A stretch of 40,035 bases of DNA from Nemertoderma westbladi (Eukaryota > Animalia > Xenacoelomorpha). Below, one piece after another: positions 2,072-38,875 of the stretch (positions are counted from its first letter, which is position 1; each line of letters begins with the position of its first letter). Where the stretch lies: NCBI GenBank assembly GCA_032718475.1, contig JAUCBJ010005726.1:1-40035 (forward strand), in the 5' to 3' direction. Below the pieces are notes generated by a model. It was not told where the DNA came from, made no database searches, and worked only from the letters and a program-made list of their open reading frames with translations. The translations under genes and the position numbers were made by a program.

Positions 2072-2419
2072 TGTTGTGTCCTCTACGGTAGGGACTACCC
2101 TACAGCCTACAAATCTACTAATACGAAGCTATAGAATATCTCTATCCGTAAAGTCCAGTAGTATACCGCTTACCAGATCCTAGTAACGATGTATCTTACT
2201 GTAAGACTCTAGTAATGAAACGGGCTCGTACAGTATCTGACAACAAATCCCAGTCCAGGATATCTAAACAAACAGATACAATACACAAACTACTACTGGC
2301 GAGGAGCAGAGCCTGGTGTCTATTCTATGTACGTGGGCGGGTCTGCCTACGAAACTAGACAAAAGGATACCTGTCCTCTACTACTACTAGGATCGGCATG
2401 CTGCATTGCAGCTGCATTT

Positions 2420-3878
2420 TTAAGAATGCTGTGCCGGCTTGTCAACAAAATTGCACCGCCACAACTCCCTATCACCCATGACATTTGCTAGATCATCCGC
2501 ATCTTTAAGGCCAGTGTCCTTTAAGATGCGTCTCAAGAAAGTCAAGGGCTGTCCACCATGCTTATTCACTCCATGAGGCTGCCAAAGTACAAGATTATGC
2601 ACTGGCTGGTCCTCACGGCGAAAGCAATGTCCTGCAAAGTGGAGGCGATTTTGTTCTAGTGTCAAGCTTGGGGGAACCAATGAGACACCTCCAATGTTAT
2701 ATAGTGTCTGGTTGGAGATGTGTGCATTGTACTTGACACAATGTACCCGGCGTAGCATTCTTGTGAATGTGCCATCCAGAGATTTGGTGTCCTCAGCAGT
2801 TAGAGCCCAGCATGGACTCCCGTAGAGGAGTACTGGAACTACTGCTGCTCTGAATAATCGGACCTTAAGTTTCCGATTAATTCTAGGTGACTTCCAAATC
2901 CTGGAAAGCCTATTCAAGGCTGCCCATGCCTTTCCCTTACGTATTCGAAGGTCCTCACCTGACTTTCGGATCCATGATCCCAGGTAACAGAAGTCGTCCA
3001 CATGCTCAAGCATACCATCCTTTGAGCTTATGCTCATCCGATCAGAGACTTGCTGAGGACTTTCAAAGTTAACTGTCAGAATTTTGGTCTTTCTGGAGTT
3101 AATAAAAAGACCAACACTAGAAGCAGCATGTTCTAATGAGCTGAGGAGCCGCTGGGCTCCCTCTAATGATTCTGAGAGTACTCCTAAGTCATCAGCAAAG
3201 TCTAGATCAGTTAGGTACTTGGCAGGATTTCCTCGACTTCTGGAGCCAGTAGGTGGAGTTATCATCACCCCATCATCATTATGATGATCTAAGGACATGC
3301 GTAGAACATAGTCAACCACAATAATGAACAAGAATGGTGCAAGTGTGTCTCCTTGGAGGACGCCCCATAACACTTCAAATGGTTCTGTGTCACCATCAAC
3401 AGTAGACACAAATGTTGTCGAACCATCGTATACTGATCTGATTGCTGCAATAATTTCATCAGGAATCCCATATAATGAAAGTATGCTGAACATACGTGAG
3501 CGAGAGACTGAATCAAAGGCCTTGAAGAAGTCAACAAAGATAACAGCCAGATGCCTGTCTTTCTTTTTTGATAACTCTTCAATTATCCTTCTAAGTGCCA
3601 AAATGGGCTCCATGGTCCCACGACCTTTACGGAACCCATTCTGATTCCCCGAAAAGAACCATAGAGTGTTAGGTTGCCCTTCTTGGGAACTGGCACCAAC
3701 TTATTTGTTTTCAATTCTTGTGGGACTCTTGTTTTACGGTACATGTCTACTATGATGGGATAGATGAGCTTTAAACACTCAGGTATTTTAAAGACCTCAG
3801 GGGGAACACCATCTACTCCACTGGCACGATTGGTCTTAATGCTCTTTGCAGCAGCCTTCACTTCTGCAAAGGAGATAT
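2420..3878 (-). pseudogene. RTE LINE reverse transcriptase (frameshift and deletion near 3640)
   Basis: Motifs FVDFFKAFDSV, GVLQGDTLAPFLF, LDFADD, FCYLGSWI, LLYGSPCW. The segment between FRG and NQNGFR is deleted. Confidence 0.9.
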
Positions 3879-6499
3879 AGATAGATAGATAGATAGATTT
3901 ATTTATACATTATGTAAAAACAATAACAAATACACCAAACAATGTACTGGTATAAAGGTATTGTCCAACATAACATATAGGATTACCCCTAAAGCTTTGC
4001 AGCTTATTTCCAAGGGGGTCCTTTATGTTACTTGGTTACAAATACAATATTACACTACGCTAACCTAAAACCAATATAAAACGTAATTACACTATGTACA
4101 TGTACAACTTTACCGAGAGCGTGACAATGCCCGACTCAACGATAAAGATGTAATGTACAGAACAATTTATTATAAAACGTAATTACAGTATAAATAGTAA
4201 ATAATTAATAAACTAATAACTTACTGTAGGACTATTGTACCTATTTTTACATTGCACACGGAGATGAGATTTAACTGCAGATTTAAAAGAATGTTGATTA
4301 TTTAGGTTTTTAATTTCATTAGGCAGAGCGTTCCAATTTTTTATGCCGTTAAAAAAGAAAGTATCAGATTCAAAGGATTTACAATTCGGGAGGTAGAAGT
4401 TTGAAGCACTAGCTCTGGTACTGTAAGAGTGTGTATCGCGTACTCTGTTGAATTTTTGTTTTAGGTAATTGGGACATTTACCATTATACACTTTATGCAC
4501 ATGGTTAAGGCGTAGCTGCTTAACTCTACTATCTAAGTTAAGTAGTCCAGATTCAGAAAAGTCATCTGGAGTTAGGTGGTGCCTAGGTTTGTAGTCTTTA
4601 ATAAATCGTACTACTTTATTCTGAGCTACTTGTAATTTACATTTAAGCTGTTTGGTTAAGCCTTCATACCAAGAAGAGCACGCATAGTCCATGTGACACT
4701 GTATTAAAGAAGAGCAAAGTAACTTGCGGGAGTCGGTGTTCAAACTATTTTTATTTCTGTATAGAAACCTAAGCCTACTGTTAACTTTCGAGAAAATATT
4801 TTTCACTGTACTTTCTCCTGATAAGCAGTTATCCAATGTGGCGCCTAAATATTTAACTTCCTTTTTATTTTCAATCTTATGTCCATTACTAGTGACTTCA
4901 AACTTAGTTACCTTCTTTAACTTTCTTTTGGAACCAAACAAAATACTTTCAGTTTTACCGTAGTGAATGGATAGCTTATTATCAACCAACCACTCATTAC
5001 AGGATTCTAGAACTGCACTTAACTTTTGGGAAATATGGATAGGATCTTTATGAGAGAAAATAAGAGCACTGTCGTCGGCATATAAAATGAGTTTAAAATC
5101 GGGATCTATACTACTTATCATATCATTTACATAGCATACAAAAAGCAGAGGACCTAATATACTACCTTGCGGTACACCACAGGTAATCTCTTGTACAGTA
5201 GACAGCGATTTGCTAATGACTACAGTTTGACCTCTGTCTGACAGGTAGGACTTGAACCAGTCTATAGAACCTACACCCATCAGGCCTAACTTACCAAGCA
5301 GAATTTCGTGATCTACAGTATCGAAAGCCTTTTGTAGGTCCAATATTACCATACCAGTATATAAACCCTTTGCGTTATTACATCTAATTGTATCAGTTAA
5401 GTTAATAAGGCGGGTGTCTGTAGAATATGATTTACGAAAACCGGACTGAAGTTCATAGATCAGATTTAGCCTACTAAGATGTGCTTCCAGCTGTAGAAAA
5501 ACAGAACGTTCTAGAATTTTAGATACAATACTTAAGATACTAACAGGTCTGTAATTACAGGGTTCTACTTTACTATTCTTTTTATACAGAGGAACAACCT
5601 TAGATAATTTCAGTTCGTCTGGTACTACATTATCTACGATAGAGTAATTAATAATAAAAGTAATAGGCACTTTAAGTACTTCAGCACCATCCTTAAGAAA
5701 ACGGGCAGGTATTAGATCTAGACCGGTACTTTTTGAGGCTGATAGGCTAAGTAGATTTTTAAAAACGAAATCCTCAGAAACGGGTTTTAAAAATAACTTT
5801 TCTGAATTTTGTAACTTTTCTAAATAAAAATTATTTAGAGTTTCGGACCCTATACTATATTTATTACTTGATAACGGTAATTTCTTAACTAAATTAGAGG
5901 CAACATTAGTAAAATAATTATTAAATAAATTACTAACTAGAGTATGATCATGAATCAGCTCACCGTTATCTTGCAGAACAATATTCGATTTAGATTTAAG
6001 GTTTTTATAACCTAAAGATTTTAGGGTAGACCATAGACTTTTTGGATTATCTTTATTCTCACTTATTTTGTTGTACAAATATTCAGATTTAGCTTTTTTT
6101 ATTTCCCGTTGGACAAGGTTTCTATATTTGCAGTAATAATTATAATCAGCTAAAACACGGTATTTCCTAAATTTATACAAATAGTTATCTCTTTCTCTGA
6201 TATTACTAAGAATACCCGAGGTCATCCAGGGCTCAGTGCGTTGTTTAAGACTAATTTCTTTAATTGGTGCTACAGTATTAAGTGCCTTTAAAAATATATC
6301 TTTAAAAACAGTGTAGGCAAGGTTAATGTCAGCGGCCTTAAAACAGGGTTCCCAGTCAGAATTAACTAACAAACTTAAAAAGCGTTCCTTGCTGTAATTT
6401 TTCATATACCAAACTGTTACTGTTTTATGATCCCCGAAAAAAGATTTTTGTGTCTTTCTTGTGCAAAAAACTATAAAATGATCGCTTAGACCTATATAT
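3879..6499 (-). mobile_element. 5'-truncated CR1/L2-group (Crack-like) LINE
   Basis: 3' UTR stem-loop at ~3980-4021, AATAAA and (TCTA)n tail at 3879-3903. Flanked by ATAT at 3875-3878 and 6500-6503. Confidence 0.88.
4213..6499 (-). CDS. CR1/L2-group ORF2 (end of APE domain + RT), uninterrupted but 5'-truncated
   Basis: Motifs [60 protein letters not shown]. Confidence 0.9.
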
Positions 6500-6780
6500 A
6501 TATCGCCAATGGGAATATCTGGGAGTACAGACTCAGACACTTTTACTTCTATAAAGTTATCAGGCAATACCCTGTCATTATTGAGGAGCTTTTCAAAGTG
6601 GGCTTTCCAACCATTGAGGCGATCGGCTGGTGATTCAGCCTTAACCTTGGTGGTTGGTTGGCTTTTCCGCCCAGTAAGCAGATTGATCGATTTCCATGCC
6701 TGGGATGATTGCCTGCTGTCGTCAGCATCATTGATGGCATCAACCTGTTGGTTTATTAGCTCCTGTAGATTAACAGAGTA
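6500..6780 (-). pseudogene. RTE ORF linker segment upstream of the CR1 insertion
   Basis: Translates as ...[39 protein letters not shown]..., typical of the RTE EN-RT linker. Confidence 0.8.
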
Positions 6781-8019
6781 ACCTGTCCTCTAACCGGTAT
6801 GGCAGATGTACAGTTACCGTAACAGACCAAACTCACGGGAAAACAATCCCTGCGCAGCGAATCCTAACTATCGCTGACAGTCCTAAATGCAGTAATACAG
6901 TTTTAGGGCGTGTGTGTGTGGGTGTGTTACAATAAAACAATTTTGGTGTATATCTTTTCACTAGGTTTTAGTAATTCTCTGACTGAAATAATACCGTGCG
7001 CTAGCTACTAAAATAAGCTAGTCGCGTTTTGTAGAGCTTTATACTTACAAATGACGTCAAAGCTCTCTCCTTCCTATCCACTAGTGTTAGTAACTACACC
7101 CGTGATCGGCACAAATACCAGATTCTGGTTGTAAAATAAGAAATAGGGATTAATTGCTACCATACGTTAGCTGATCTGGTATACGAATTTGATTCTAGAA
7201 CTTTGTTGCAGCGGTAGTTAGCAGCAATACCTATCAGTACGTGGCAAGGCGCGGTAGGATATTAATAAAACCTCCCTAGGCCAAGCGGTGTGCCGGTAGC
7301 AGAAATACTCCTTGCCTGATCAAATAACCAACTTCAGGCAGGGGGGGGGGGGGTACTAATGTATGCTCTACAAAGCGAACCGGTACCAAACAGTCAGTAC
7401 TGCGAATCACTAAATTATGGAACATAAGCTGTCTGTACCTAATATGTACTCGCGTACTGACGGACGGCAATAATTCGCACCTGTGAGGTATACAGGTAAC
7501 CCAGGGATTCACACTACTGACGGGGGGGTGGTTTCTGCCTAAAATATCGTTATTTGATCCTAAATTTGCGGCGTCCCAGGACGACGTCACGCTTACCCTG
7601 ATCTATAGGTCTTACGGCGGGCAAGGGCGTCAAACAAAGTCTTACCTTCCTCATAAAGCGGGCGCTGCATGGCATGTGGAGTATTTCGAAGGGCGAAGGG
7701 GGTGCGCGGTCTAAGTTAATGTGGGCGTTAGCGTGTTGTGGACATCCTTTCCCTGCGTTGCTGACGGCCTAATGGTATAGGCGGCCATCTTCCCGATGTT
7801 TGGCTGTCCCAAAGTTGGACCAAAGAAAAACATGTTCAGAAGTTTACAGTGTATTTACAGTTTAGCGAAAGAATAATCAAACAGATTTAACATAGTTTCA
7901 ACAAGAAACTAGTTAAGAAATGACAACAAGAAGTGATAACTGATAAGTACAATTGTGATAAATGTTAAACTAAGTGAGACAAGTTTTATAAGTAGTGATA
8001 ACCGAAGGCAAACCAGCCC

Positions 8020-8157
8020 TTTATATACTAAATCTGGGACATAGAATTCACTAGAACCTTCTAGAGTATTCCATGGCCTCACATTGGAGCAATAAGATAT
8101 TCCATGCCCTATGATTGGCCTAACTCATCGTTTGATACGTTGTACGCACCTCATTGG
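8020..8157 (-). promoter_or_regulatory. Putative Pol II promoter of the BEL-1 LTR (TATA + CCAAT boxes)
   Basis: Minus strand TATATAAA at 8027-8020 with CCAAT boxes at 8083-8087, 8114-8118 and 8153-8157. Similar arrangement in copy 1 (TATAAAA ~1021-1027). Confidence 0.55.
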
Positions 8158-8193
8158 CTTACCAATTTGTACCAAATGAAAATAAATTGCCCC

Positions 8194-8275
8194 AAAATAC
8201 AAATTTCCCGACCAAGATTCGAACTCGTAACCTATCTAATGCAACCAACGCCTTAACCATCTGACCACTACGCCA
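8194..8275 (-). ncRNA. tRNA-derived Pol III cassette in the BEL-1 3' LTR U3
   Basis: A box TGGCGTAGTGG, B box GAGTTCGAATCT, TTTT terminator. Confidence 0.6.
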
Positions 8276-9251
8276 CGAGAGTAACTAGGGGTTTTATGTA
8301 TACAAATATGAATAGGCATATTACATTACTGTAACTTAATCAAAGTGCGTCGGATTTTCGAAAGTTTTTACGTTATACTACAAATGCTATTCTATAGTGA
8401 AATAATTCATCACCGCTCCATGAAAACAGTAAGTAAGACTGTTTTCACCAATCGAAATACAAAACTATTTACAAATACTTCTAAATCTACTGGTAGGGCC
8501 TAAAATATAAAACAATCACTATCTAATTATTGCATACTTAATATTGCAGGTACAGCGTAAATACAATCCATCATACGTACAAAATACAAATTTACCAATC
8601 AACTTTAGTGCATAAAATACAAAAAGGCTTTCGGTTATCAAGATAAACAAATTAAACAAATCGGAACAAAATTAAATCAAAACGAATCGAACAATTAATT
8701 ACAAAGCTTTCAATAATCTTTCATATATTGTAAATATACATAATAAACTTCCACCAAATTAAATCAGTCCAAATATAAAATAAACATAAGGCGCTAAAAT
8801 CTTTCAAATAAGTCTTAAAGTGTCCTCCTGCCGATCTGAATAGTTCGTCCTGCTGGTCTGGATGTCTTCTCCTGAGCACTAATTGCTAACGGTAGGCTCG
8901 CAAGCCTTCCTTCTCTATCTCGCTCCTCCAAAAGCAATTCCAATATAACTACTCAAATAAGTCCAAATATAATATCTCAAATATAAAGGTCCAAAATCGG
9001 TAGGCTCGCAAGCCTTCCTTTCTTCTCGCTTTCCTAATCCTTGGTCGAATGGGCTCGTCCACGTCCTCTAATACGATTGGGTGGTGGTCGAGATCGAACT
9101 GGTCTCAGACTTCGGTGTCGAGCTGTCGGTGGTTCCTACGTCGAGTTGCCTGCGGTTCTAGAATACCGGGAAATGAAACGACCGCCTTCTTGGTAACGCA
9201 GACTTTGGTGGTTTGGGCAACGCGCTAATATCGGCTCAGGGTTCTCCGGGT

Positions 9252-9804
9252 TCAAGCGCATAGGAATCGCGTTGTCTTGCTCACGCGTACATCCTCCACA
9301 TTTATAGAACAGTTTATAAATGGGGAACGCGTCCTTGGTTTCCGGATCCGCTCCTCGAGCGCGTCTATAAAGATCATATATATCTGTAGTCTCTGCGACA
9401 AACGCTGAGCAAAGGTGATACTATCGAAGAGCTCGAGTGTCATCTCCTTAGGTTCGGTTTGATCATGGGATATCCAATAAAATGATAGGCTCGCGAGCCT
9501 TCCGCCAAACTCCTCGATCTCGCCTTTCTCGTATTCCTTCAAATTCGTCCCTGGCTGCAGGCAAGGGTTCGTTTGCCGTCAAATATTGCAGCGTATGATA
9601 TAATCGGCGTATCTCTGTGTCTGGATCCTCGCAAATGTCACTAGCGTCGCATAACGCATCGTAGGGATACAACGCATTGAACTCCGCGCGTAATTCCTCC
9701 GCTTTTTTGTTATAAGCATCCAATCGCTGTCGCGTAACGTTTGGATCCGCCTTGGACTTAGCGAGCTTGGCTGTACTCCTAGCCATACTCTCCACTCCAA
9801 ACAC
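9252..9804 (-). pseudogene. Accessory ORF downstream of BEL-1 integrase, frameshifted, unknown function
   Basis: Two overlapping ORFs (9463-9804 and 9252-9542) with helical, charged, protein-like composition between integrase and the 3' LTR. Confidence 0.5.
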
Positions 9805-10563
9805 GTTAAAGTTTTGGCTCCATAACGATTAAATGGTGCCTGGTGCTCCTGTTCCTGCGTGAATCCCTGTGTATGTAGTGTTTCTACTAGAGGTTAGATG
9901 TGAGGAGACTTAGAGTTTTGTCGGCTTTTGGCTCAACTTTGCTCTAAAACCCCAACCCATTTGCCTAATGACTTCGGGTTCGCGTGATTTCGCACTGGCT
10001 CCTAATCCAAAAAAATGTGCCGATAAAAAAAGAATTCCGGGTAAACTAGCCGCGAGTCTAAAATACTCACCTTTTAATTTCCCAAACTACTATCCCAAAG
10101 AAATAATGCAGTCGAGAATTAATTCGGTCTAAATAATAGTAGACACGACTACGTAGAACAAGGCCGGTTTTCTTTTTCAAAAAAATTTATCGGTAGGCTC
10201 GCAAGCCTTCCATCTGCTCTTGTCCTCCCCAATTTTAATTTTTATCTAGTTGTATTCTAGAATTCGCATTCACTGGAGAATCATTTTCTTAAATTTAAAT
10301 CCAACTAAATGGATTTGTCTAATAATTTTTGAAAATTGTCTCACTTGTGGGTTCCAAGTGGAATTCCATTCCTACTGTACACACAATCCCGCTCCTATGT
10401 GATACATAAGGGTACTACCCTCCATGTTCACATATAAAGACAATGGAATTCCACCGCTGTCTCTATCTACAGTGAAGAGGATTACAAATGCACATACAGT
10501 AATACAAATACTAATTTACTAAAATACGGTAGGTCTATGTGGCGGCCAACAAAGGTCCCACAT

Positions 10564-11838
10564 CTATTTACTAATATTGGGTGGAGATTTGTAGTCTCCT
10601 GTCTCGTTTCTAGTCTCCTCAAGGAGCACGAGACGTTGTACAGGTCTGTCTATGGTACGTCCGTCGATAGTCCTTACAGTAACTGTTCTTATTACACCAG
10701 ATGTAGGGTGCATGGTCAAAATGACTCCAGTCAGCCAAAACCGTCTTTTCAGATTGGCTTCAGCCAATAAAACATGGTCACCACGTCTTAAACATCGGGT
10801 ATTAAGATACCAAGATGTTCTGGTTGAAATAGAGGGCAAATAATATTTCTGCCATATTTCCCAGAATTTATTTGCAAGCAATTGAGTGATTTTCCAAGCT
10901 TTGTTGCCATATCCGTCGCTATCAACGGGTACCGAAATGGGCAACAATGTCGTCGGCGCCTGCATAAGCAGGTGCGCTGGTGTCAAGGCAAACTGTGCGT
11001 CGTTATTGTCTGGGATCAAAGCGATCGGTCTAGTGTTCAAAATCGCTTCGATTTCTATTAACAACGTCGTCAGTTGGTCGTCTGTCAATATGTGTTGCGT
11101 CGGTACGACTTTAGCCATAGCTGTTTTTATTGAGCCAATCAGCCTTTCCCAAATGCCGCCTCTCCACGGACTGTCTGGAGTATTAAAATACCAAACAATA
11201 CGGTGAGGGCGTAGTTCCTCGGAAATCTGGTTTTGGTCCAACTTTCTCAAAGCTCTGGTTATTTCGTTCCGTGCACCCACAAAGTTTGTCCCTTGGTCGC
11301 AGTAAATGGATTTGACCAATCCACGTCTAGCGATAAATCGCCGTAAGGCTAGGATAAAGGCATTGGTGGTCAAATCTGTCACACGCTCTATATGGACAGC
11401 TCTGCTGGCCATGCAAGTGAAGATCAATCCCCAACGTTTTACCTGTACCCTTCCGCGTTTCGCGATTATGGGTCCAAAACAGTCTATCCCTGTCTCAGTG
11501 AAAGGGGGTCTAAATGCCTGTAATCTCGCTAGTGGTAGTTCACTCATTTCTTGGTGTCCTATCCTCGCGTGCACCTTCTTACAAATCATACAGTTCCGTG
11601 TTACCGAACTCAGTGCCTTACTAGGTCTAATCAGTACAAACCTCGATCGTAAGTGTGATAGACAGTGGTGTCTACCCACGTGTTTGAGTTGTACATGTGC
11701 GTCCAGTATCATAGCACGCTGTAATTCATGGTGTTGCGGTATGATGATAGGATACCTAAAGTCAAGTGCAAAGTCGATGTTTTGGAGTCTGGACTTGTGA
11801 CAAAGTAAGCCCCGGTAAATAATCGGACTCCAACTCAA
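10564..11838 (-). CDS. BEL/Pao integrase
   Basis: HHCC region (H...H...CMICKK), TGIDCFGP, IFTCMASRAVHIE, YCDQGTNFVGA, SPWRGGIWERLI, EAILNTRP, LTPAHLL, C-terminal G.IRTVTVRT...RPVQRL. Confidence 0.95.
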   Translation of the reverse strand: MSWSPIIYRGLLCHKSRLQNIDFALDFRYPIIIPQHHELQRAMILDAHVQLKHVGRHHCLSHLRSRFVLIRPSKALSSVTRNCMICKKVHARIGHQEMSELPLARLQAFRPPFTETGIDCFGPIIAKRGRVQVKRWGLIFTCMASRAVHIERVTDLTTNAFILALRRFIARRGLVKSIYCDQGTNFVGARNEITRALRKLDQNQISEELRPHRIVWYFNTPDSPWRGGIWERLIGSIKTAMAKVVPTQHILTDDQLTTLLIEIEAILNTRPIALIPDNNDAQFALTPAHLLMQAPTTLLPISVPVDSDGYGNKAWKITQLLANKFWEIWQKYYLPSISTRTSWYLNTRCLRRGDHVLLAEANLKRRFWLTGVILTMHPTSGVIRTVTVRTIDGRTIDRPVQRLVLLEETRNETGDYKSPPNISK

Positions 11839-11886
11839 AATCGGTGAAGACTTAATCTGTTTACCTTGGTTGATCGCTGTGAATTC

Positions 11887-14617
11887 TCATGCGAAATATC
11901 GCAATTGATAATGGCGAATGATATCAACTTCACAATGACCAACTTCCTTTAAGGTAAGTCTTCTAGGAAAGTCGCGTTTGCCTCTGGCATATTGTCTCAA
12001 ACGTTTGAGCCATGCTAACTTGCGGCACGCGTCAGTCCATGATCTAGTTAGGTTCACTATCCTGTCAACGTAAGTGTTAGTGACGTCATCAGGTAAGGTA
12101 TAGTCGTATTGTGGATACTTGTCTGGACTTGGTAGGCCCACGGGCCTTCCGGTAGGTTTGTCTGAGTCCCCAAGTATGTCAATCTCTACGGTCTTACCTT
12201 TACCGTCCGCACCTAATGAGTCGACTGGCAGTAACGGTTTCAACTCTACAGTACCAGTGTGTTCCTGTGAGCCTGTAAGCTTCCTAACCTTAGTCACACG
12301 TTTACCTGTAGGTGGTAAGTCAAGTACCTTCTTTGAGCGGAGTGTGATCGCTGTGGCCACACCTTTGTCGTCCAAAGAAGTTAAATTTGGTAAGTCTCTA
12401 AAAGTCCGCTCCAATGGGTCTTCTAGGGGAGTGTCTAGTAGACAGTCTGGTGAAGCGTCCGGTGAACAGTCTGGTGAGACGTCTGGTGAGACATAGCGCG
12501 GAACATCCAGCGAAATGTCCTGTCATCGGTCCCAAAGTCTGTCTGGCGTAACTTCTGTCATAAAGTCTGGTCCAAAGTCTGGTGGACAGTCTGTCGAGAT
12601 GTCTGGTGGAAAGTCTGGTGAGACGTCCGGTAGACATTCTGTCGAGAGTTCCATAAAACAATCTGTCGAGCAATCCGGAGAACAATCTGGTGTCACTTCT
12701 GGTGAATAATCTGGCGAGTAATCTGGTGAACAATCCGGCGAAACGTCTGGTGAAATCTCCCGCGGAACATCCGGCAAAAGATTCGTACAAGCGTCTGGTC
12801 GAGTGTCTGATGAGACGCCTGGCGTAATGTCAGGTCTGGCGTCCAGGTCATCAGATTTCGTCCGTCCTTGTTTCCTCTTGACCTTGGCGTTGGCTTTCGC
12901 TTTAGATTTGACAACCTTGTCGATTTTTATCTCGGCACCCTCTGGTATGGTGTTGGTTGTCGCGTCGAATAACGGTGGCCACTTGCTAGCGTCACTAAAG
13001 CTGTGAAGCTCTAAATTGGCAGGAAAGGTGGTCTGCAAAGGAAAGTATACCCTCGGTATGGTATAGTCTTGTAGGAACGTCAGTTGGGCTTCCCAGTCCC
13101 TCCATTGCTCAGCTAACTTTTCTGGGATGGGGTCGTCCCATTCCAGTCCGGCTTGCCAAATGCTGCGGAGTATGATCCTAGCATGTAGGATCACTGGACT
13201 AATGAAACACAATGGGTCATACAATCGACTCATGGTCGATAAGCAAGTCCTCTTAGTGAGAGGTCTAGTCTGGTCGTTGGACCTTACACGTACCCTAAAA
13301 TTGTCGGTGTTAGGGTCCCAACTCAGTCCTAATACTTTGGTCGTCGGCAGAGGTTCTAGGTCTAATTCTAAGTCACCTCCACTGCGATCCATCGGGTCAA
13401 ATGAGTTCACCAGTTCGGGTTTGTTGGAAGCGAACTTTGTTAGGTGGAATCCGCCCTCAGCGAGACAATCCTGGAGTTGGTGTGCTACGGTTGTAGCGCG
13501 TTCCAAGGTGTCACAACTCTTGAGGCCGTCATCCACGTAGAAATCTCGTTCCACTGTCCGAACTACTTCTGGATCAAATTGGTCTCGTCTGTCCAATGCG
13601 GTCTGCTTTAAGGTGTAAATGATGCAGTTGGGGGCTGTCCCTGGCTCCAAATACTCTTACCTGCATTTGGTAAGTTTCTGGCGGAAGTTGTAAGTTTCTG
13701 TCTGGATACCAAAGAAACCTCAAGCTGTCCCTGTCCCGCTCCAAAGCCTTAACCTGGTGAAACATGGCCTCTACGTCACAGGTGAAAGCCACTTTGCGTT
13801 GTCTAAAACGCATTAGGACTCCCATGAGGTAATTGTTCATATTCAGCCCGTCCATCAGTTCGCTGTTCATAGACATCCCTTGGTAAAGCGCAGCGCAGTC
13901 GTTGACTACACGCACCTTGCCAGGTTTGTCCAGGTGTCGAACAAAATGATGTGGCAGGTAATATGTCTGGTCTGTGGTTACCTCGGGATTTAACATCCTA
14001 ATGGCGTATCCCTTTTGGAGATACGTCTGAAGTTGTGCATTGTATTGCATATGGGCCGTCTCGTCTCGCAACAATCGCTGCCTTATTGATTTGAGTCGCC
14101 TCAAAGCAAGCGGGTAATTGTTAACGAGTTTAGGTTGTCCATTGCGCCACAACATACCAACCTCATAGTGGCCATTCGCGGTCTGGCGAATGGTATCTCT
14201 CATAATATTTAATGACCGTTTTTCCTGTTCTGACATAGCGGTCTCGTAACTACCGGGTTCTGCTGAGTCCTGTTCCAACCATTGAATGGTCCGTTCAGTC
14301 AGCAGTCGGTCTAGCGCTGCTTGCACTGCGCCATGGTCCTCGTCCACGTCTTCGTCCGCTGCGGTGGCTAGTGTCAATGTGTCTGGTAGGCTCGCAAGCC
14401 TTCCGGTGTCACTAGTCGGTGTCGAATCGTCATGCGGCGGTTTGACAACTTCTTGATCTGTCGGTAGGCTCGCAAGCCTTCCTAGATCAATGACCGGTGT
14501 CGAAGCCTGGTGGGTGGGGTCAATGACCTTCGGATTTTTCGGTAGGCTCTCAAGCCTTCCAAAATCCTCGTTCATCGAGTCATCCACAGCACCAACCCTT
14601 TGGTCTTCAGTAGTCAA
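11887..14617 (-). pseudogene. BEL/Pao RT-RNase H region (frameshifts, RNase H deletion, repeat insertion)
   Basis: YYLPHH, KVRVVNDCAA, DVEAMFHQV, LRFLW, FGARDSP (frameshift ~13650), FYVDD, KVLGLSWD, LYDPL, LHSFSDAS. Confidence 0.93.
12430..12850 (-). repeat. 12-bp coding minisatellite (S/T/P-P-D-x) inside pol
   Basis: Repeated TCTGGTGA/TCCGG units encoding PDVSPDCSPDYSPDYSPEVTPDCS... Confidence 0.85.
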
Positions 14618-14722
14618 TACAACCTGGTCTACTGCAAGTAGTTGTAAGTCAGAGGTCCGTGTGGTCGTGTCCAGATCAGTTACGTCAGTATCGGTGGCGT
14701 CTGCGTTAGCGACGCAAGTCTG

Positions 14723-17700
14723 TCATAGTGCCGTCCGTACAATTGGACCACGGGAGTATGAAGGATAGTTATCTATCGTAGTAGTCAATAAACTACATGT
14801 ACTCAAAACATCGTCCTCCTGGTCACTTACCTCTAGTGAACGTATTGGTGCTCTAGTATACCAACCTATGGGAGTTCTACATGCATAGGGGTTGCCCGCT
14901 GTAATAACAGATGGGCGTGTCTCCCATACCTGATGTAAGTTAAACTGGTCTGTCCCAATTAACATCGCAATGGAATGATAATTAACAGGACATTCCGGTA
15001 TTCCAAGGTGTCAGAAATACTTACGATCTTCCGGTGATTGCTCTGGCATAGGGCCGAGCAAGTTACTAAAGTCCTTCGTAGCTGCAAAGGTCAAATTTCT
15101 TACCGGAAGTAATGAGCGCTCCTCCTTGCTGTGTTCCGCTTTGGAAAGAAGAGTGTCTAAGGTTAGTTTTACTCTTGTCACAGGGATCGCTCTCTTACCA
15201 TGCATGCTGCTTACAGTATACTGAGCAGTCTTACCTTTACTCATCTCCGTAACCACGTCGGCTACTTGTTCATCGACATAACTATGCGATGACGCAGAGT
15301 CTAAGATAGCGTATATACGCTTGCTCCCTCGGGTTCCGGTAATCTTTATAGGAATCACGCTAAACCCTTTCAATTGGTTCTGTGTGAGGAGCGTTACCGA
15401 TGGTTGTTCCTCACCCGCATGCACGTAGAAAGTGTCGTCTTCCTCCTCGTCCTCGTCCGATGATCCTGACTGATCCATACAGTCCGTATAAAACGTACGG
15501 ATCTCGCGCGGCGCACACTCCTTATATAATGCGTCGCATCTAGCCGCTTTATCTGGATGCTCTCTTCGAAAGCGTCTGGTCGGAGTATGACTAGTAGTGT
15601 GAAGTAACGCGTCATGGTTACGTCCACACAGAGGACTTGTATCGTCGCTCGGGCAATCCTTCCGGACGTGTCCTGGCTTCGTACATCTCCAGCAAGAATC
15701 TAAAGATCGGATTTGGAGTCTCCTCTCCTCGATTCCTAACTCTTTAAAAGCGCGACATCCACGAAGTTTATGTCCGCTATGGTTTCTGCCGTTCCGCTCG
15801 CAGTATGAGCATCCCGCAAAGTCCGCCGGCAACTGTTGTTGTGGCTGCGTGGTGCCGATAGGCGTCAGAACTTTAGAAGTCTCAGTAGGGGTGGCGTAGG
15901 TAACGGCTTTTGCGTTCGTCGGAGATGGTTTAGTCCGATTCGGCGCAGAAATAGCTATCCCTTCTGCCGCGATATGATGATCAGTATAGTTCGATCGGGT
16001 CTCGATCACGGCCTCCCGCGAAATCAGTTGATAGACGTCGGTGAGTTTTAATAGCCCGCCGGCCTCTTCACGCTGGTACTCGATGCGTCGCCATTCTCGT
16101 CGGAGTAGATGATGAAGTCGACCGATTATCCTGATGAGAACCGTCAGTGCGTTAGCATACTCGAGTTGTCCAATGGACCGTAAAGTCCCTATAGCGTTTT
16201 TTATTTCGTCCGCGAGTCGTAGAAGATCGATCGGTTTCGAAATGCTGCCTCCTCTGCAGAGGTCTTCGATAATAGGATTTAGCCATGGCGACGTTACCTC
16301 CGTAAATCGAATATAAACGGTCGTACGCCAACTCAAAGGCATCGGGAATACCAATGAAGGTTTCCGTTAATCGTTTCGGCTCACCAGACAGGACTAGGAG
16401 CAAGTAATTAAACTTCTCCGTCGAGGTGAAAGCAAACTTAGCGATCTGGGACTCTACGTAGTCTACCAGTGTGCGCCAGTGTTTCGCGTTGCCAGAGAAC
16501 TTTGGCGGTTGCTGTGCCGGTAATCCGTGTCAAGCCGCGAATTTCGCAATCTCGCTAACCAAATCCAACTGTCCGCGTCCCTGTTCGGTGGCGTCGTCCA
16601 GTCGCTCCCTTCCGCGCGTTGTTCGGCGGTAAGAATTATTAACGGGATCTTCTTCTCGACGTGTCGGAGTTTGTCTAGTCTACTGTTCTCGCCTTGGTGA
16701 TCGATGTTGTCTAGGTTGTTCTAACTCCACGCTGGTTCGTGATCCATCCGACGGTTGCGCTTCGAGTCGCTCTTCTATCTGAGCTAGTCGGTCCGTTACA
16801 GGTCGTATTATTTCGGCGAGCCTGTTGGTGCTGATCGCTTCCGCTGGTTGCAACGTGGGTTTCTGTTGGGGTGTTTCTCGTGGTGGATTGTCGATGTATG
16901 GGTTCGTTGATCTCTCCTCCCGTTTGTAATCCGCTGCCGCTCTAGTACGGAATATTTCCCGTTCCGTCGACTCCGAGTCGCTAGATGAGTCGCTGTCGTC
17001 CGGATAAGGTGGTTGGCGGGTTCGCGTCCGCCGTATTATCCTTGGTCGAGTTCGTTGTGGTCTGGGATCTACGGCTCTCCGTTGTTCGGCAGGCTCGCAA
17101 GCCTTCCACGAAGTCGTAGGTCTCGTTGAACTCGGTTCGATCCTGTGGGTACTACCCACATCCATCCTCCTCCGTTGTTCGGTAGGCTCGCAAGCCTTCC
17201 ACAAAGTCGTAGGTCTCGATAAACATTGGGTGAGAGGTCTAGTAAAAACATCAGAGTTAATCTCTACTGTAGGTTTATAAATGACTGGGTTCGCGCAGCA
17301 CGTCACAGGTTTACCTTGCAATGGTTTACTCACCTGTTTTACTGTCATAAACACAGGTTCGTCTCTCTCTACAAGTAAACTACGGCTTACAGTAGGTGGA
17401 CTACTTATCTTAGCTGCGAGAATCGGCGATGAAGTCGCTCGTGGCTGCGGAATTGATTCCGACATAACAAACCTATTACCTTGCACGGGTGATATTTCCT
17501 TCGGTTTTGCAACCATAATCGGTTTTACTGGAGTCGCGGGTTTGAGCATAGGAATAACTTGGGGAAAACGTTTACAGTAATCCTCGACGAACTCCTCTCC
17601 TCGGTCTATCGCTCCCATACTTCCATCCTCGATTCGCTTCTGAATTCCGCGATATCGAGTCTCCATGCGATCCAGGGCAGACAAGTCGTGTCCAGCTCGA

Positions 17701-18391
17701 GACCTTATAGATCTATCTCTCGCGTCGAGTTCGAGGTCCTCTTGCGCGTTCGCCGCCTCGCGCGATCTGCGATTTAGTTCGAACTGGAGCTGCATCTCCC
17801 TTTCGCGTTGATCTGCTTCCTTTTGTTGTACCGCTAACTCCGCTTCCTGTATAGCTAAACGAGCGTTTATTTGTCACGCCTCCAACTTGGCACGAGCGTC
17901 GGATGCTGCTTTCTTCCGTGCTAACTCGTCGGCTGCTGCCTGTCGTGCTAACACGTCAGCTGCCGCCTGTCGTGCTAACTCGTCGGCTGCTGCCGCTGCT
18001 TCTCGCGCTAAGTCCTCCTCCAGTCTCCAGTCTCCGATGCTTCGAATTCGGCTTGCGCTTTGAGTTTCGCAATTCTTGCTTCATCCTGTCTGCGTTGTTT
18101 CTCTCCCTCGATGGCAATCTGTGCCATCTGCCGTTGCGCTTCTTCCTCGGCGACTTGTTGTCGGCGTGCGACCTCCTGTTGTTGTCGGGTAATTACAGAC
18201 GCTGTGCTACTAACGTCGCCAACGTCGCTCCGCACACTAACGAACGATCTATCCAGTGGTGGATTTTGGTAGGCTCACGAGCCTTCCGTAGTTAGAACTT
18301 CCGTCGTCCCTCGCGGTTCGACGCCGTGCTGTCCCGTAAATGTAACAGCGTGGGTTAACTGATACAGAGAACGTAGTACTAGAGCTCCCAT
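14723..18391 (-). pseudogene. BEL/Pao gag-protease (several frameshifts and stops) with a long N-terminal extension
   Basis: PPKFSGNAKHW...EKFNYL gag core. Cys-His triplet CSYC..H..C, CWRC....H....C, C...H..LLH. Protease ILDSAS, LIGTD and TPIGW motifs. 27-bp repeats (AADELARQA) at ~17905-18000. Confidence 0.88.
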
Positions 18392-19411
18392 TTTACTCTA
18401 AACAGGCAAGAAATCTAATTGACTGATTCAGTATTGAAAACTTTAATCCCAGGGACCGCTGTTATTTGGGTGTGGGTACATTTTGTGCTTATCAACTTGA
18501 CTGAAAACAATACTCAAACATGAAATGCGCAAAACACAAAACAATAATCAAACTTAGGTTGCGTGCCATGACAATGTGACAGCATGTAATAAAAATGTAA
18601 ATACTGAAATAGACCAAAATTATGACCTGTGATAAAATAATGTACTAACACAAACATAAATATTATAATTTGTAATTTTTATGTAGAGCCTATCAAAATA
18701 TCGTACAATATATGAAGTAGAGATAAGCTTGAAGCAATTCACCGCCTATCACTAACCCAGGCCTTTAGGTTACAATTCATAAGCAGTCCTAACTCCTTCA
18801 AGCCAATTCGCCTACCAGATTACCACCGGTAAGAACTGTAAAAACAATACCGTACTACTCAAATACAGCCAGAATACTACTGTACTGAACTGACTGAGAG
18901 TAAAAGTAATATTTAAATTGTGAACTAACCCCTATATTTTTTGGTTTAAAATAAATATACAAATATCGAAATCAAGGGAACAAAATGTAATGTACCTCAA
19001 CGCTAGATTAGGTAGGCTAGCTCAGTAGGCCTTCCAACCGTGTAGCCCAACAGACTAGAGCAAAAGGCATTCAAAAGTCACTCCTAGTACACGCACTGGC
19101 CATGAACGTACACTAGCAATTTAGAAATTGAAACTAGAAGCAATAGCCTGGGGTGATATGTAAACCTTAAACTAACCACAACGTCCGCAAGTTGCAGAAA
19201 TACCAAATGCGCAAATACACGCGGCGCAGCACACACAGGTCAAAATTTACGGTACCACTAATCCATACTACACACCGTCACACGTCCAGCACTCAACCCA
19301 ATAGATTTAAGCAAACATCATGTGTTGTAGCATTAGTAACATAGTAAAATTCAATGTAAATTATCGTAGGCCTAATATGTAAACACTGAAACAGTCAGAT
19401 TTGTATTTAAA

Positions 19412-20098
19412 TCATAAAACTTTTGTGACGCCGCATCTACGAAGAAAATTGGTGAGCGTCCCTAACCTCCCGTCCAGGCAGTATAGTTCTTCTTCCTCTT
19501 CGGGTTGTAACAACGCGTCCGAAACTGATTCACCTAACAGTTGGTCGAGTTGTTCTTGCTGAGTCGATCCTACAACCGACTTAAACTGGATAAGGCTTTC
19601 TCTCGCACTTACCAACTTATCGATTATCTTTACCTGAGTAAAGTTGTTGCCACGCAACTCTGCAAGTTCGTGTAAACCTTTAAGTTTATCTATGGAAGCA
19701 TGTACCCTACTTTCTATCCTTACCTGTAATGCATAGAACTCGTATCTCGACATCGGGGCGGTTAACTCGCGTAAAAGGCGAAAACCTTCTCCGAAGTTTC
19801 GAGTAATCTGGGCCATGTGTCCTCCTATACTCCTAATAAGGTTCTCCTGGCTTCCAGTCGAACTTACCATGTCCGGTTCCCGCGATCTGGTCTGCGGGAC
19901 GGCAAGGAAATCTTCGATTCTGCCGTTGCCACGCGTTGCGGCTTCCGGTATTTCCGTTCGGGGTACTGGCGACGCACGCGGTGTGACATCGGTAGAATCT
20001 CGGGTTCTCCTTCTCGGTTCGTCTACTGTCGATCTGTCTGGGTCGCACGAGTCATAGTCGGTAGGTGGGTATCGAGTCGAATGGGGTGTGTCACTCAT
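19412..20098 (-). CDS. 228-aa ORF upstream of gag, resembling a BEL Gag N-terminal helical domain
   Basis: Intact ATG-to-stop ORF. RSIGGHMAQITR resembles the R.G....ITR start of BEL Gag proteins. Confidence 0.55.
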   Translation of the reverse strand: MSDTPHSTRYPPTDYDSCDPDRSTVDEPRRRTRDSTDVTPRASPVPRTEIPEAATRGNGRIEDFLAVPQTRSREPDMVSSTGSQENLIRSIGGHMAQITRNFGEGFRLLRELTAPMSRYEFYALQVRIESRVHASIDKLKGLHELAELRGNNFTQVKIIDKLVSARESLIQFKSVVGSTQQEQLDQLLGESVSDALLQPEEEEELYCLDGRLGTLTNFLRRCGVTKVL

Positions 20099-20129
20099 GT
20101 CTTATTATATACGTCAAGTACGGGTAATA

Positions 20130-20325
20130 AAATGTCAAAGTATCTGAATGTTGGAGTGTCAAACTTACCTTGGTATATATAGTATATATACCCTAACCAG
20201 TACAAATAAACCAACAAAGTCAGAATGTCGAAATGTCAAAATGTCGAAATGTACAAATGTCAAACTTACCTTGATATATATATATATATCATATATATAC
20301 CCTAACCGGTACAAATAAACTAACA
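20130..20325. repeat. ~100-bp tandem duplication in the BEL-1 leader, each unit with a consensus splice donor
   Basis: TGTCAAACTTACCTTG..TATATA..CCCTAACC.GTACAAATAAAC occurs twice; on minus this reads CAAG|GTAAGT. Confidence 0.7.
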
Positions 20326-21094
20326 AAGTATATAATAAAATAAGTAATAATCTAGCCTACCGGCTAAATTTGTACGAATAAATGAGATAACGGTATACGT
20401 TACCAAAATGTAGATCAACAAGTACAAATAATAGGCAAAACAGCAACGTCTAACGGGAAAACAAATACCAACAACACTACTAATAGACAGTGAAACCCAC
20501 AAATTTTGAGTACTACTGTGCTTTCTTAAGTTTGAACGACACGAGTCGTAAAACTTACGTTCCTTTGATCTTCCAGTCGTGCAAATTCCCAAATACAAAC
20601 CGGACGTGGGTCGTTCCGTTTTTCGGCGGCGCGGACGAATTTGTTGTCTCCCAAACTTTGCGAAAAGCGGTCTAATCCTCGAAGCGGTCCAGAAATGAGT
20701 CCTTGAGTCCTGAAAAGTCGAAGGTGAGAGTTTTACTTCTACTTTACAAAAAATCTTCCTAGGTACCGATACAACTTGGTCTTTAAACCCTATGTACCTT
20801 TTCAAGTACCGAAAAGTAACACCGCACACACACGGCATAAAACAAATGCTACAAACTAACTATTAGCTAGTCAAATATTAAATACAAAAGTACTAGCTAC
20901 CCTAAAAGCCTACTGAAGCAGGGGACGTTCTACAAATTACTAAATTTACTAACCTTAATTTTTTAAATATCTCCTACTTACAATAGCTAACAATATATTT
21001 ATCTACCATTTGCAAATCGCAACTTGCAAACTAAATAATAAATATACCACTGCAAAGTATATCTCTCACTTTCGTAACATAAAATATACCTCAC

Positions 21095-21294
21095 TGTTGT
21101 GTCCTCTACGGTAGGGACTACCCTACAGCCTACAAATCTACTAATATGAAGCTATAGAATATCTCTATCCGTAAAGTCCAGTAGTATACCGCTTACCAGA
21201 TCCTAGTAACGATGTATCTTACTGTAAGACTCTAGTAATGAAACGGGCTCGTACAGTATCTGACAACAAATCCCAGTCCAGGATATCTAAACAA
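21095..21294 (-). repeat. BEL-1 5' LTR, U5 end
   Basis: 199/200 identical to 2072-2271. Confidence 0.92.
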
Positions 21295-21646
21295 GATTGC
21301 TTTACATTACAGACTATTAAACTGGTTGAGAGATTATATAATATAGGCCTAAGTAATAAGCTGGCTTTCTAAGAACATTGTGATGCCTTATCATGGGGGT
21401 GGGGAGGGGGGGGGGGCTGAGGGAATTATTGGTAGTGTGGCTGGAGGACTGGCTACAACACTTTGATGGGGTATATGGTCTCCTTTCTACTACTTATTTT
21501 CTTTGGCAACCTGCCTGGGATAATGTGGATTGTATCTGGTCTGGGGTCGGGCTCCTTTCCAAAGCAACTTCAACTTCGAATATTTTCTATTATTCGGTTT
21601 ATTGCACTTGTCATTATAATTTTTTAATTTAACGGAACTTGACGAT

Positions 21647-22030
21647 GTACCTAACTGATCTAGACTTTGCTGATGACTTAGGAGTACTCTCAGAATCATT
21701 AGAGGGAGCCCAACGGCTCCTCGGCTCATTAGAACATGCTGCTTCTAGTGTTGGTCTTTTTATTAACTCCAGAAAGACCAAAATTCTGACAGTTAACTTT
21801 GAAAGTCCTCAGCAAGTCTCTGATCGGATGAGCATAAGCGCAAAGGATGGTATGCTTGACCATGTTGACGACTTCTGTTACCTGTGATCATGGATCCGGA
21901 AGTCAGGTGAGGACCTTCGAATACGTATGGGAAAGGCATGGGCAGCCTTGAATAGGCTTTCCAGGATTTGGAAGTCACCGAGAATTAATCGGAAACTTAA
22001 GGTCCGATTATTTAGAGCAGCAGTAGTACC
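21647..22030 (+). pseudogene. Internal RT fragment of the same RTE family, inverted
   Basis: About 97% identical to the reverse complement of ~2834-3218 (YLTDLDFADD...), with an internal stop. Confidence 0.9.
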
Positions 22031-24896: not shown

Positions 24897-25180
24897 TTTC
24901 GATATGTAGTTGCGCCCTTCGAGCAGCACGTGAGATAATAAAATAATAGACACAATGTTTGACTTTGTCCCTTTGAGCAGCACGTGAGTTTTGCTTTGAG
25001 CCTTCGATATATGTATTTGCGCCCTTCAAGCAGCATGTGAATTACATCAAATAATAGACACATTGTTTGACTTTGTCCCTTCGAGCAGCACGTGAGTTTT
25101 GCTTTGACCCTTCGATATATGTTTTTGCGCCCTTCGAGCAGCACGGGGAGTCGACTCAGACCGAGCCGAGCCGAGCCGTA
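24897..25180. repeat. Minisatellite (~55-60-bp subunits, ~108-bp higher-order unit) followed by (CCGAG)n
   Basis: Five CCCTTCGAGCAGCACGTGAG-like cores. Confidence 0.85.
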
Positions 25181-25208
25181 TAACCTGCTAACGACACAGC
25201 ACATACGA

Positions 25209-25473
25209 CCTATGATTGGCCTAACTCATCGTTCGATACGTTGTACGCACCTCATTGGCTTACCAATTTGTACCAAATGAAAATAAATTGCCCCAAAATA
25301 CAAATTTCCCGACCAAGATTCGAACTCGTAACCTATGTAATGCAACCAACGCCTTAACCATCTGACCACTACGCCACTATATTACATTACTGTAACTTAA
25401 TCAAAGTGCGTCGGATTTTCGAAAGTTTTTACGTTATACTACAAATGCTATTCTATAGTGAAATAATTCATCA
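25209..25473 (-). repeat. BEL-1 5' LTR, U3 start, including the tRNA-like cassette (25295-25376)
   Basis: Matches ~8108-8412 except for 2 substitutions and a ~40-bp deletion. Followed by TSD TAGCT. Confidence 0.9.
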
Positions 25474-27099
25474 TAGCTGTTGGATTGTCGGGTTTTGCTA
25501 CGTGGTCTATGATTAGTTAATTTTTTGAAAGGCTATATATCTCAAGAAGTATTCACTTTGGAATGATGAAGTTTATTTTTAAATGTTCTCTAGAGTGTTT
25601 CCGATCCTACTAAAGACATCCAATTGCTGTATGACTACCGGTTTCACGCTTTTGATTGTTTGAATATGCATGAAAATTTTGCATATAATATATCAAGAAG
25701 AATTAATTTTTGCACAAGGAAATAATAGATAATAGCACAGTCTGAATATAATAACATGCAATACAGTGGTTAGTGACGATGGTCAAAACTATTCTGGTTC
25801 CACAACTATAAGGAGAACCAACTAAATCAGTAATTAGTAATCATAACGGTTATATCATTGACACATAATATTACATTAGTCCTACATTACAGGGCGGCCT
25901 TAATATCCAATAGATGGGCTCTATTCACCCCCAATGTGCTTTCCCGCCCACTATTGGCTTAACCTGATTAATTGTCACCTCGCCACTCCCTGTTCCCGAT
26001 ATCCCTCGTGCTAGGCTCACTAGCTTGTTTCTCCCTCTGAGGTGGTTTGACCTCTCACCTCCCTCTGTGGCTTATGGCGTGTGTCCCCCCCCCCCAGTTG
26101 GTTATGAGGTGAGATTATTATTGGTAATCTCACCTCACCAACTATATTGGTAAAATGCCACTAATCCCATTTTCGGTGGGTAGTGCACGGAATTGAATCC
26201 GCTTACACTCCCCCCCCCCCATGCTATCTTCCCGGTGAGAAGATAGCATATCAACCTTAAGTGCACTTCAATTCCGCTGGATTCCAATCTAATATTGGAT
26301 GTGGGGTGGAATTTTCTTCTCGGGGTCGGCTTTCCAGGCCGGCCCCCCATGGGTCTGTTGTCACTACCCATCCTTGGTACATCTGCGAGCTATGTTGTAC
26401 CAAGGTATCTGGTGTCTCTGTTTAAGATGATTGCCCTCACTCCTCACACAATTTTCCTCGCAGACTTTGTTGTCCCTTTGTCTCACCAGTCCCTTGGGAC
26501 TCATCCTCCTCTATACTCGCTCCCCACACTTGAATCTCGCACTTCTTTCACTTCCTCACACCCTAGCACCTCCTCCCCATACTTCCCCCATTCCCCAATT
26601 TTCGTTGTCACTCTCCACACTCTTATCGGGTCCCACGCATGTGTACATCATGTCAGTGAGATCCGTCTAAAGTCTCGTCCTGCTGTTCTAGTCAATTAGT
26701 CCCCAGTCCCAGTAGCTAATTGGAAAAAGGTTGTACTTGACTATAGTATGTATATTATATATTATACATTCGTCTACATGACGTTTCTTAACCCCCCCCC
26801 CCCCCCCCCCCCCCCCCTCTTAGAGGTCATATGACTCGTCACTCCCAGTCTCGCCCGTTTCATGTCTTCTCCGCCATCACGATTCTCCTCTCTCACCAGA
26901 CTGGTGGTGCCTTGGAAAGGCTTAGGATGGTAAGAGATAACTAAGTATGGTCTTGATTAGTTTAAATCAGTGATGGCCCTTCTTCTTATCTTGTTCTTCC
27001 TATTTCGTACAAATATTCCCCTTATGTGTCAATTTACCCTAAATTTATTCTGTCGATATTCCCCCCTACCTGTGCTATTATCCTATCTGCCATCTGATA

Positions 27100-34052: not shown

Positions 34053-34265
34053 TGTGATGGCCTGGATATTTAGTAGGTAGGCCTACAGGCACAGCGGTTA
34101 CCGGTACCAGACTAAGATGGTGATGGGAAAGTGGTTGGCCCTGGAGGCCTAAAGGCTAATACTGCTGTACTGTGGTAATTGACACCCATACATATATAAT
34201 ATATAATAAATATATATTAGTTGACTTTATTATTTATATGGAGCCGCACACACAAGTTCATAACA
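34053..34265 (+). repeat. Gypsy 5' LTR
   Basis: TGTGATGG...CATAACA, identical to 38876-39088. Confidence 0.97.
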
Positions 34266-34275
34266 TGGCGCAGTG
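34266..34275 (+). promoter_or_regulatory. Primer-binding site (tRNA-Ser-like)
   Basis: TGGCGCAG directly after the LTR, complementary to a tRNA ending ...CUGCG-CCA. Confidence 0.65.
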
Positions 34276-34287
34276 ACTAAAACTTCA

Positions 34288-38804: not shown

Positions 38805-38875
38805 CAAACTCAACATACTTAAAAGTAACTTTTGAAGTAATAAAAAGTAACTTTTGAAGTAATAAAAAGGGGAGT

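Follow-up and report, generated by a model that had tools for sequence, protein, structure and literature searches.

A 40,035-nt stretch of Nemertoderma westbladi DNA (contig JAUCBJ010005726.1 of assembly GCA_032718475.1, positions 1 to 40,035; hereafter the window) carries on its minus strand what is, judged by its sequence, a BEL/Pao long terminal repeat (LTR) retrotransposon, the minus strand being the sense strand of the element. Comparison of its copies indicates that the element contains a real, selected and family-specific array of self-complementary hairpin motifs, whose function we infer by analogy: it is quite possible, if short of probable, that these eleven co-oriented palindromes act as dispersed sites of RNA dimer linkage and packaging. 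RNA selection and pairing in LTR retrotransposons are poorly defined even for Ty1 and Ty3, in which packaging likely uses scattered sites that are suspected and left unnamed (PMC4974528). The candidate signal described below is an exact, short, repeated word, which makes tests feasible that need no more than short RNAs and a single small domain of a protein.

The motif, GGAAGGCY-NNNN-RGCCTACC, is a 20-nt imperfect palindrome with 11 copies between 8891 and 18287, all on the minus strand. A pattern search confirmed the positions and the single orientation that had been given in an earlier note on the window, with six exact copies (8891, 8999, 10192, 14385, 14463 and 17181) and five variants (9484, 12131, 14541, 17088 and 18268). 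When up to three mismatches were allowed, 23 strand-matches were found; 100 shuffles averaged 0.52 and gave 3 at most, and none scored as high. The word GGAAGGC is absent from the plus strand, on which all 12 occurrences of GCCTTCC are motif sites. A covariance model was built from the 11 copies, which it recovers by construction; in a scan of the 40 kb, only 19009-19037 fell below an E value of 4 (16.6 bits, rough E 0.01) besides the copies and their reverse strands. Rfam covariance models gave no match at E up to 1 over positions 8000-22000.

The copies span 9.4 kb and occupy seven sites, with flanks that are unrelated between sites and alike only within a site. Fourteen of the 20 motif columns are invariant across three reading frames and non-coding DNA, and loop G10, loop G12 and A3 are identical in 11/11 copies. 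The mismatch that the earlier note had described as kept in the stem is an unpaired A-A, which is replaced by a Watson-Crick pair in 0/11 copies. Seven of the 11 copies lie in gag or pol frames, one in open reading frame 3 (ORF3) and three in non-coding DNA. The copy at 18268 is in the likely gag frame, those at 17088 and 17181 are read as WKACEP, and those at 14385-14541 and 12131 as GRLASLP/GRPVGLP. Coding copies sit in linkers, and none falls in the reverse transcriptase (RT) block at 12979-14311; only the 12131 copy touches a homology block, where it is crossed by 2 alignments compared with more than 120 in the integrase core (a control set without gag and protease). On the sense strand, the base 3' of the motif is a purine in 11/11 copies, compared with 54% purines overall, and the next base is A in 8/11.

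The local duplications of 78, 93 and 108 bp that contain several of the copies were real, with 0, 0 and 1 of 500 shuffles aligning as well, and proved to be old. Within the 78-bp repeat the motif is 20/20 identical compared with 32/58 for the spacer, within the 93-bp duplication 19/20 compared with 35/73, and within the 108-bp duplication 20/20 compared with 22/88 in an ungapped comparison. Had motif and spacer diverged alike, the chance of 20/20 in the 78-bp repeat would be about 7e-6. These identities describe old duplications in which the motif appears to have been kept while the spacers decayed. Because the motif stands at 19-20/20 in such duplications, a recent neutral duplication of all copies, the contrary case raised in the earlier note, is rejected. 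The conserved motif beside spacers of about 55% identity points to selection on the nucleic acid, and together with the use of three frames and non-coding DNA it supports the claim that the constraint does not act through protein.

Other copies of the element were compared through the contigs of four of the seven listed runs (X1, X3, X4 and X5), and family letters were examined at the copies 12131, 14541 (letter 14550) and 18268 (letter 18277), for the latter two from 40 of 1048 listed differences. The loop letter of the window at 14550 was found in 0 of a depth of 77,524 in X1 and in at most 47 of 86,561 in X3; the UGAG loop of the 14541 copy is private to this copy. The loop rule is thus YGYG rather than YGNG as first proposed. 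The share of the window letter at 18277 was no higher than about 0.5% (X1) and 1.5% (X3), and the loop of the 18268 copy is not evidence of family variation. Across 12131-12150, no other letter reached 3% in 240 (X1) and 134 (X3) contigs, so the C-G pair and CGUG loop of this copy are fixed in the family. All 77 stem cells are paired, and one of the seven pairs is changed on both sides (U-A to C-G at 12131). In the window copy at 9484, the stem change gives G-U pairing in the sense orientation alone, as had been described; one X4 contig changes 12144 with the same outcome, and neither of the single stem changes seen gives G-U in the antisense orientation.

Once the private letter at 14550 is set aside, every loop conforms to Y-G-Y-G and can self-pair via G-C and G-U. 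This self-complementarity, a feature absent from the earlier note, is present in 10/11 copies on the sense strand compared with 1/11 on the antisense strand, the sense exception being the private letter, and it thereby favours RNA-RNA pairing. For a pair of UGCG copies, the predicted 14-bp duplex has an energy of -30.7 kcal/mol compared with -15.2 kcal/mol for two hairpins and -22.9 kcal/mol for the antisense duplex. The loops rank 16, 4 and 20 of 256. The sense sequence of 12,675 nt holds 35 wobble-tolerant 14-nt palindromes, among which the ten copies with such a loop take the top ten places in strength; since controls also contain lone palindromes about as strong, the array itself is the unusual feature. 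In a 150-nt context, the core folds with a probability of at least 0.49 in 11/11 sense copies, and in the antisense context it is below 0.05 in 2/11, weak in one and good in eight. Copy-specific extended stems were also considered and rejected for want of overall support, though the 14463 copy folds well (z -3.95).

Taken as dimer-linkage and packaging sites, the copies would work as follows. On a lone RNA, the prediction is a small hairpin at every copy. Where two copies meet, self-pairing of the Y-G-Y-G loops, which G-U allows in the sense orientation, would open both hairpins and give a 14-bp duplex with the kept A-A mismatch at its flanks, a switch in which, by analogy, the Cys-His domain of Gag would likely help. 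Two genomes may in this way be joined at many points for packaging, as the same analogies suggest. Out-of-register pairing would yield local duplications, of which selection would then keep only the 20-nt core. Gag involvement, dimerisation and packaging are all proposed here by comparison with known systems. In a bolder and unlikely form of the idea, the hairpins would be a multivalent array of RNA stickers that zip two 12-kb genomes lengthwise or condense them into assembly foci; such an array would amplify itself by out-of-register duplication and recruit foreign RNAs with matching arms, an event perhaps recorded by the 1.1-kb insert described below.

Several results weigh against dimer linkage and packaging. 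The LTRs and the 5' leader, where known signals for dimers and packaging are located, gave no model match, and the first copy lies about 1.7 kb into the internal region. Four other BEL families were found without such an array, which is thus no general requirement of BEL elements. Self-complementary loops make up 36 of the 256 possible ones, a prior of 14%, and 8/11 copies fold as well antisense. The strand signals are suggestive only, consisting entirely of C-to-T changes, the commonest kind, in 2 to 4 events. Extension of the stems by their flanks, compared with swapped flanks in 12 settings, was mostly not significant, the exceptions being one setting at p 0.001 (pair counts) and one at p about 0.03 on both measures. 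Four-base loops are poor kissing partners. Polymorphism at 12131 (0/20 in the motif compared with 7/161 in the flank) was not significant alone. As for the covariation claimed earlier, the U-A to C-G change stands and is fixed in the family, but it is a single event matched by 49 of 500 shuffles and not significant.

Three other explanations were weighed. The hairpins may be protein ligands, with the zinc knuckles of Gag or a host export or transport protein reading the two loop guanines and the A-A mismatch, an account that is compatible with dimer linkage rather than exclusive of it and that, taken alone, we consider fairly unlikely. The invariance of G10, G12 and A3 and the Cys-His knuckles of Gag would be accounted for, and RNA viruses and hepatitis B virus (HBV) offer known cases of packaging by several dispersed stem-loops (PMC6281560). 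The analogy drawn in the earlier note, that nucleocapsid (NC) proteins bind such tetraloops, holds in that the NC of Rous sarcoma virus (RSV) binds G residues of a UGCG tetraloop that matters for binding; it is weaker than had been put, as mutation of this loop is also reported not to have lowered Gag specificity, and a GC-to-UU change in it to have left packaging unaffected (PMC5035970). Known dispersed signals moreover vary around a short motif (PMC6281560, PMC8472981), in contrast to the near-exact 20-mers here, and the self-complementarity of the loops would be left unexplained. What survives of the proposed RNA signal for Gag is that an RNA-level role tied to particle assembly is still the best reading.

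That the motif instead acts as double-stranded DNA is unlikely: a site with dyad symmetry and a CG core would bind a dimeric protein, the ORF3 product or a host factor, and numerous sites in one orientation, multiplied by tandem duplication, would work against silencing or raise transcription. There are precedents in the VANC motifs, which have such a role in VANDAL transposons, are co-oriented and accumulate by tandem repeats (PMC5735166), and in Sirevirus LTR elements, for whose palindromic motifs, high in copy number and with a CG core (PMC2829016), such a role is proposed. The orphan ORF3, the conservation of the loop letters as sequence and the CpG observed/expected ratio of 1.11 in the element compared with 0.69-0.88 elsewhere in the window agree with such a role. 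It fits poorly with LTRs and a leader lacking copies and with the coding position of at least 7/11 copies, whereas VANC and Sirevirus motifs are mainly non-coding, and a DNA site would not need the linked two-base change at 12131 or the sense-only G-U pattern. ORF3 itself showed no homologue and no DNA-binding family, and its structure model (predicted local distance difference test score 56) gave no confident fold. Still less probable is a functionless, self-copying hot spot that stalls or switches reverse transcriptase, is duplicated or converted and survives where the protein tolerates it. Three of the seven sites are indeed local duplications, deletions and the insert joint lie near copies, and the confinement of coding copies to linkers, with none in the RT block and only 12131 touching a homology block, is what such a hot spot would leave. 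Yet conversion would carry flanks along, and here similarity stops at the 20-nt edge with unrelated flanks at different sites; the 12131 variant is fixed and was not converted back, and template-switch repair of a hairpin should mend the A-A mismatch, which is mended in 0/11 copies.

Among known systems, the array shares with Ty1 PAL1/PAL2, the dimer initiation site (DIS) of HIV-1 and the palindromes of mouse mammary tumour virus and Mason-Pfizer monkey virus a hairpin that is short and self-complementary and lies in the genomic RNA of an element using reverse transcription. Ty1 dimers rely on PAL1/PAL2, where the hairpin, according to one proposal, passes with Gag into an extended duplex (PMC6844567), and the retroviral DIS has a GC dyad and is required for packaging (PMC12789967). 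Both the Ty1 and retroviral hairpins and the array are predicted to switch to an intermolecular duplex, and a GC dyad is present in the main loop of the array as well. The difference lies in number and place: those systems have one to three sites, within the 5' leader or close to it, compared with 11 near-exact copies over 9.4 kb here, none in the leader and most in coding linkers. The dispersed packaging signals of single-stranded RNA viruses and HBV (MS2 TR-like, RGAG loops) are likewise many co-oriented stem-loops that include coding regions (PMC6281560), but they combine a short shared loop motif with varied stems, whereas the array consists of near-identical, duplicated 20-mers with self-complementary loops. 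Stem-loop C of RSV psi has the same UGCG loop and is bound by the zinc-knuckle NC; it is a single leader copy with a different stem, and its binding needs a second site (PMC5035970).

The two DNA precedents resemble the array in other respects. The repeated motifs of Sireviruses (Ty1/copia, plants) are high-copy palindromes with a CG core in an LTR retrotransposon; according to PMC2829016, they are clustered in LTRs and upstream of ENV, are non-coding, have a CGG-CCG core and are read as DNA regulatory boxes. The present copies are absent from the LTRs, occupy three coding frames and have a different core. The VANC motifs of VANDAL transposons are, like the array, family-specific, co-oriented and tandem-duplicated, in an element with an accessory gene, but they are 8-9 nt long, not palindromic, non-coding and part of a DNA transposon, with binding demonstrated (PMC5735166); the motif here is 20 nt and palindromic, with no binder known.

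Table 1 Coordinates of the motif copies and of the other features of the BEL/Pao element in the window.
Feature	Coordinates	Strand	Remarks
Motif copy	8891..8910	-	UGCG loop; 3' non-coding region; 108-bp duplication with 8999
Motif copy	8999..9018	-	UGCG loop; 3' non-coding region
Motif copy	9484..9503	-	CGCG loop; G-U at stem pair 2; within ORF3 region
Motif copy	10192..10211	-	UGCG loop; spacer between integrase and ORF3
Motif copy	12131..12150	-	C-G closing pair, CGUG loop; end of RNase H-integrase linker
Three motif copies (14385, 14463, 14541)	14385..14560	-	78-bp repeat, protease-RT linker
Two motif copies (17088, 17181)	17088..17200	-	93-bp duplication in gag, WKACEP frame
Motif copy	18268..18287	-	gag N-terminal region, third frame
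5' LTR	21095..21294	-	Visible 200 nt; outer end probably cut
3' LTR	2072..6931	-	Parts 2072-2419 and ~6790-6931 (outer end inferred); broken by two long interspersed nuclear element (LINE) reverse-transcriptase fragments
gag and protease	15011..20101	-	Broken by stops, frameshift and insert
gag N-terminal ORF	19412-20101	-	gag region also has coiled coil, DUF1759 and Cys-His knuckles
pol	10564..14722	-	RT (YVDD), RNase H start (FSDAS), 12-nt low-complexity linker, integrase (H2C2, DUF5641)
Orphan ORF3	9100..9789	-	After integrase, broken; N-terminal 108 aa predicted helical, low confidence
Low-copy non-coding insert in gag	18323..19427		1105 nt; other copies without insert
Long-loop look-alike, both 7-nt arms	19011..19035	-	Within low-copy insert; 16.6 bits, E ~0.01

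The assignment of the host element follows its domain order on the minus strand: an LDSAS protease, a YVDD RT and an FSDAS RNase H are followed by an integrase with H2C2 and DUF5641, as in BEL/Pao, which is defined by the order protease, RT, RNase H and integrase, by D-S protease, YVDD and DAS motifs and by a triple Cys-His box in Gag (PMC554778). Domain matches included Peptidase_A17 (E 2.6e-24) and DUF1759 (E 2.8e-7). In the Cys-His region of Gag, the middle knuckle, CX2CX4HX4C, is clear, the first has a longer spacing and the third is without its first Cys in this copy. The nearest database integrases are at most 42% identical, the best relatives share the same domain families, and the named database matches to the element came from fish, molluscs, a tunicate and arthropods. 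A homologue search with the gag N-terminal ORF gave no match; P0121, the sole homology match for ORF3 and the gag N-terminal region, was rejected as an artefact of summed fibronectin repeats. Matches of a pol fragment in the PDB were also discarded, as they corresponded to low-complexity repeats. Between RNase H and integrase, the linker at 12400-12980 is long and of low complexity, with a repeat unit of 12 nt (SPDC/SPDV peptides) and the contig depth of the family. Beyond 12982, two contigs (X4 record 20, X5 record 29) diverge, which indicates that this copy is without part of RNase H through a deletion. Promoter, terminator and tRNA scans yielded nothing useful.

The family is much repeated, with a summed contig depth over the element of about 12,000-75,000 in X1 and X3, a figure that is not a copy number. 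The copy in the window has many stops, the RNase H deletion, 4/181 sites that differ from most copies and several later insertions in the 3' LTR. Its LTRs are in direct orientation and 199/200 identical (2072-2271 compared with 21095-21294), and a loose end in X5 at 21294 runs on like the 3' LTR copy; the outer end of the 5' LTR is probably cut, and no target-site duplication was seen. Near-identical LTRs in a broken copy could reflect recent trans-mobilisation, conversion between the LTRs or a collapsed assembly, and the mobilisation of a defective copy in trans is only hinted at by this identity. Some contigs join 9372/9374 to 9533/9542 in ORF3, which would delete the 9484 motif copy. Elsewhere in the window, a second BEL-like integrase fragment, recognised by eye, lies at 33620-39088 beside an inserted Gypsy-type element with identical 214-nt LTRs at 34052 and 38875, and neither carries the motif. 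A non-coding repeat of 1.4 kb is present as three copies or fragments (1-1525, about 6931-8417 and 25164-25478), one of them where the internal region of the BEL/Pao element meets its 3' LTR.

Other copies join 18322 to 19428, so the intervening 1105 nt are an insert of this copy. The depth over 18351-19224 was 55-103, compared with the thousands of the element itself, and at the joint the other copies show about 19 other letters, with no target-site duplication. The long-loop form of the motif described in the earlier note is present within it, with both 7-nt arms in the orientation of the motif (about 1e-4 expected in the insert), but it belongs to this low-copy insert and not to family sequence. 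In base make-up the insert resembles the untranslated regions of the element, and it may derive from a sister element. It had no Rfam match, so there was no sign of a group I intron.

To place the array beyond the window, viral contigs, prokaryote genome contigs and metagenome loci were searched. The exact 20-mer had no match in viral contigs, and neither the integrase nor its alignment found a relative there. Prokaryote genome contigs contained 30 single scattered matches to the relaxed pattern, two of them the exact 20-mer. The motif resembles the bacterial repetitive extragenic palindrome (REP), which has a GTAG foot and occurs clustered and in high copy number in prokaryote genomes; a REP-like origin was rejected, the 30 matches being lone ones with no second copy within 3-kb loci. 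Nine metagenome BEL loci were compared, eight at 34-38% integrase identity and one short segment at 52%, which represent four distinct families by shared 20-mers and are mostly partial. They contained no motif at up to five mismatches, the best model match had an E value of 0.32, and no hairpin type occurred more than twice. A twin look-alike (L037) was dismissed, as it is antisense and its foot pattern arises by chance with P 0.35. A literature search on BEL/Pao signals, on dispersed stem-loops of LTR elements and on the motif letters, with most subscription papers outside its scope, found no such array described and no account of RNA selection or pairing in BEL/Pao; the published BEL elements of PMC3118150 lay outside the comparison and may bear on novelty.

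Should the motif prove to act as DNA, the array would represent an anti-silencing system comparable to VANC, within an LTR element that probably belongs to an animal. If instead the dimer-linkage and packaging reading is true, a dimer or packaging signal can be distributed over coding sequence in every frame and gain copies by duplication, which would also explain the continued movement of broken copies.

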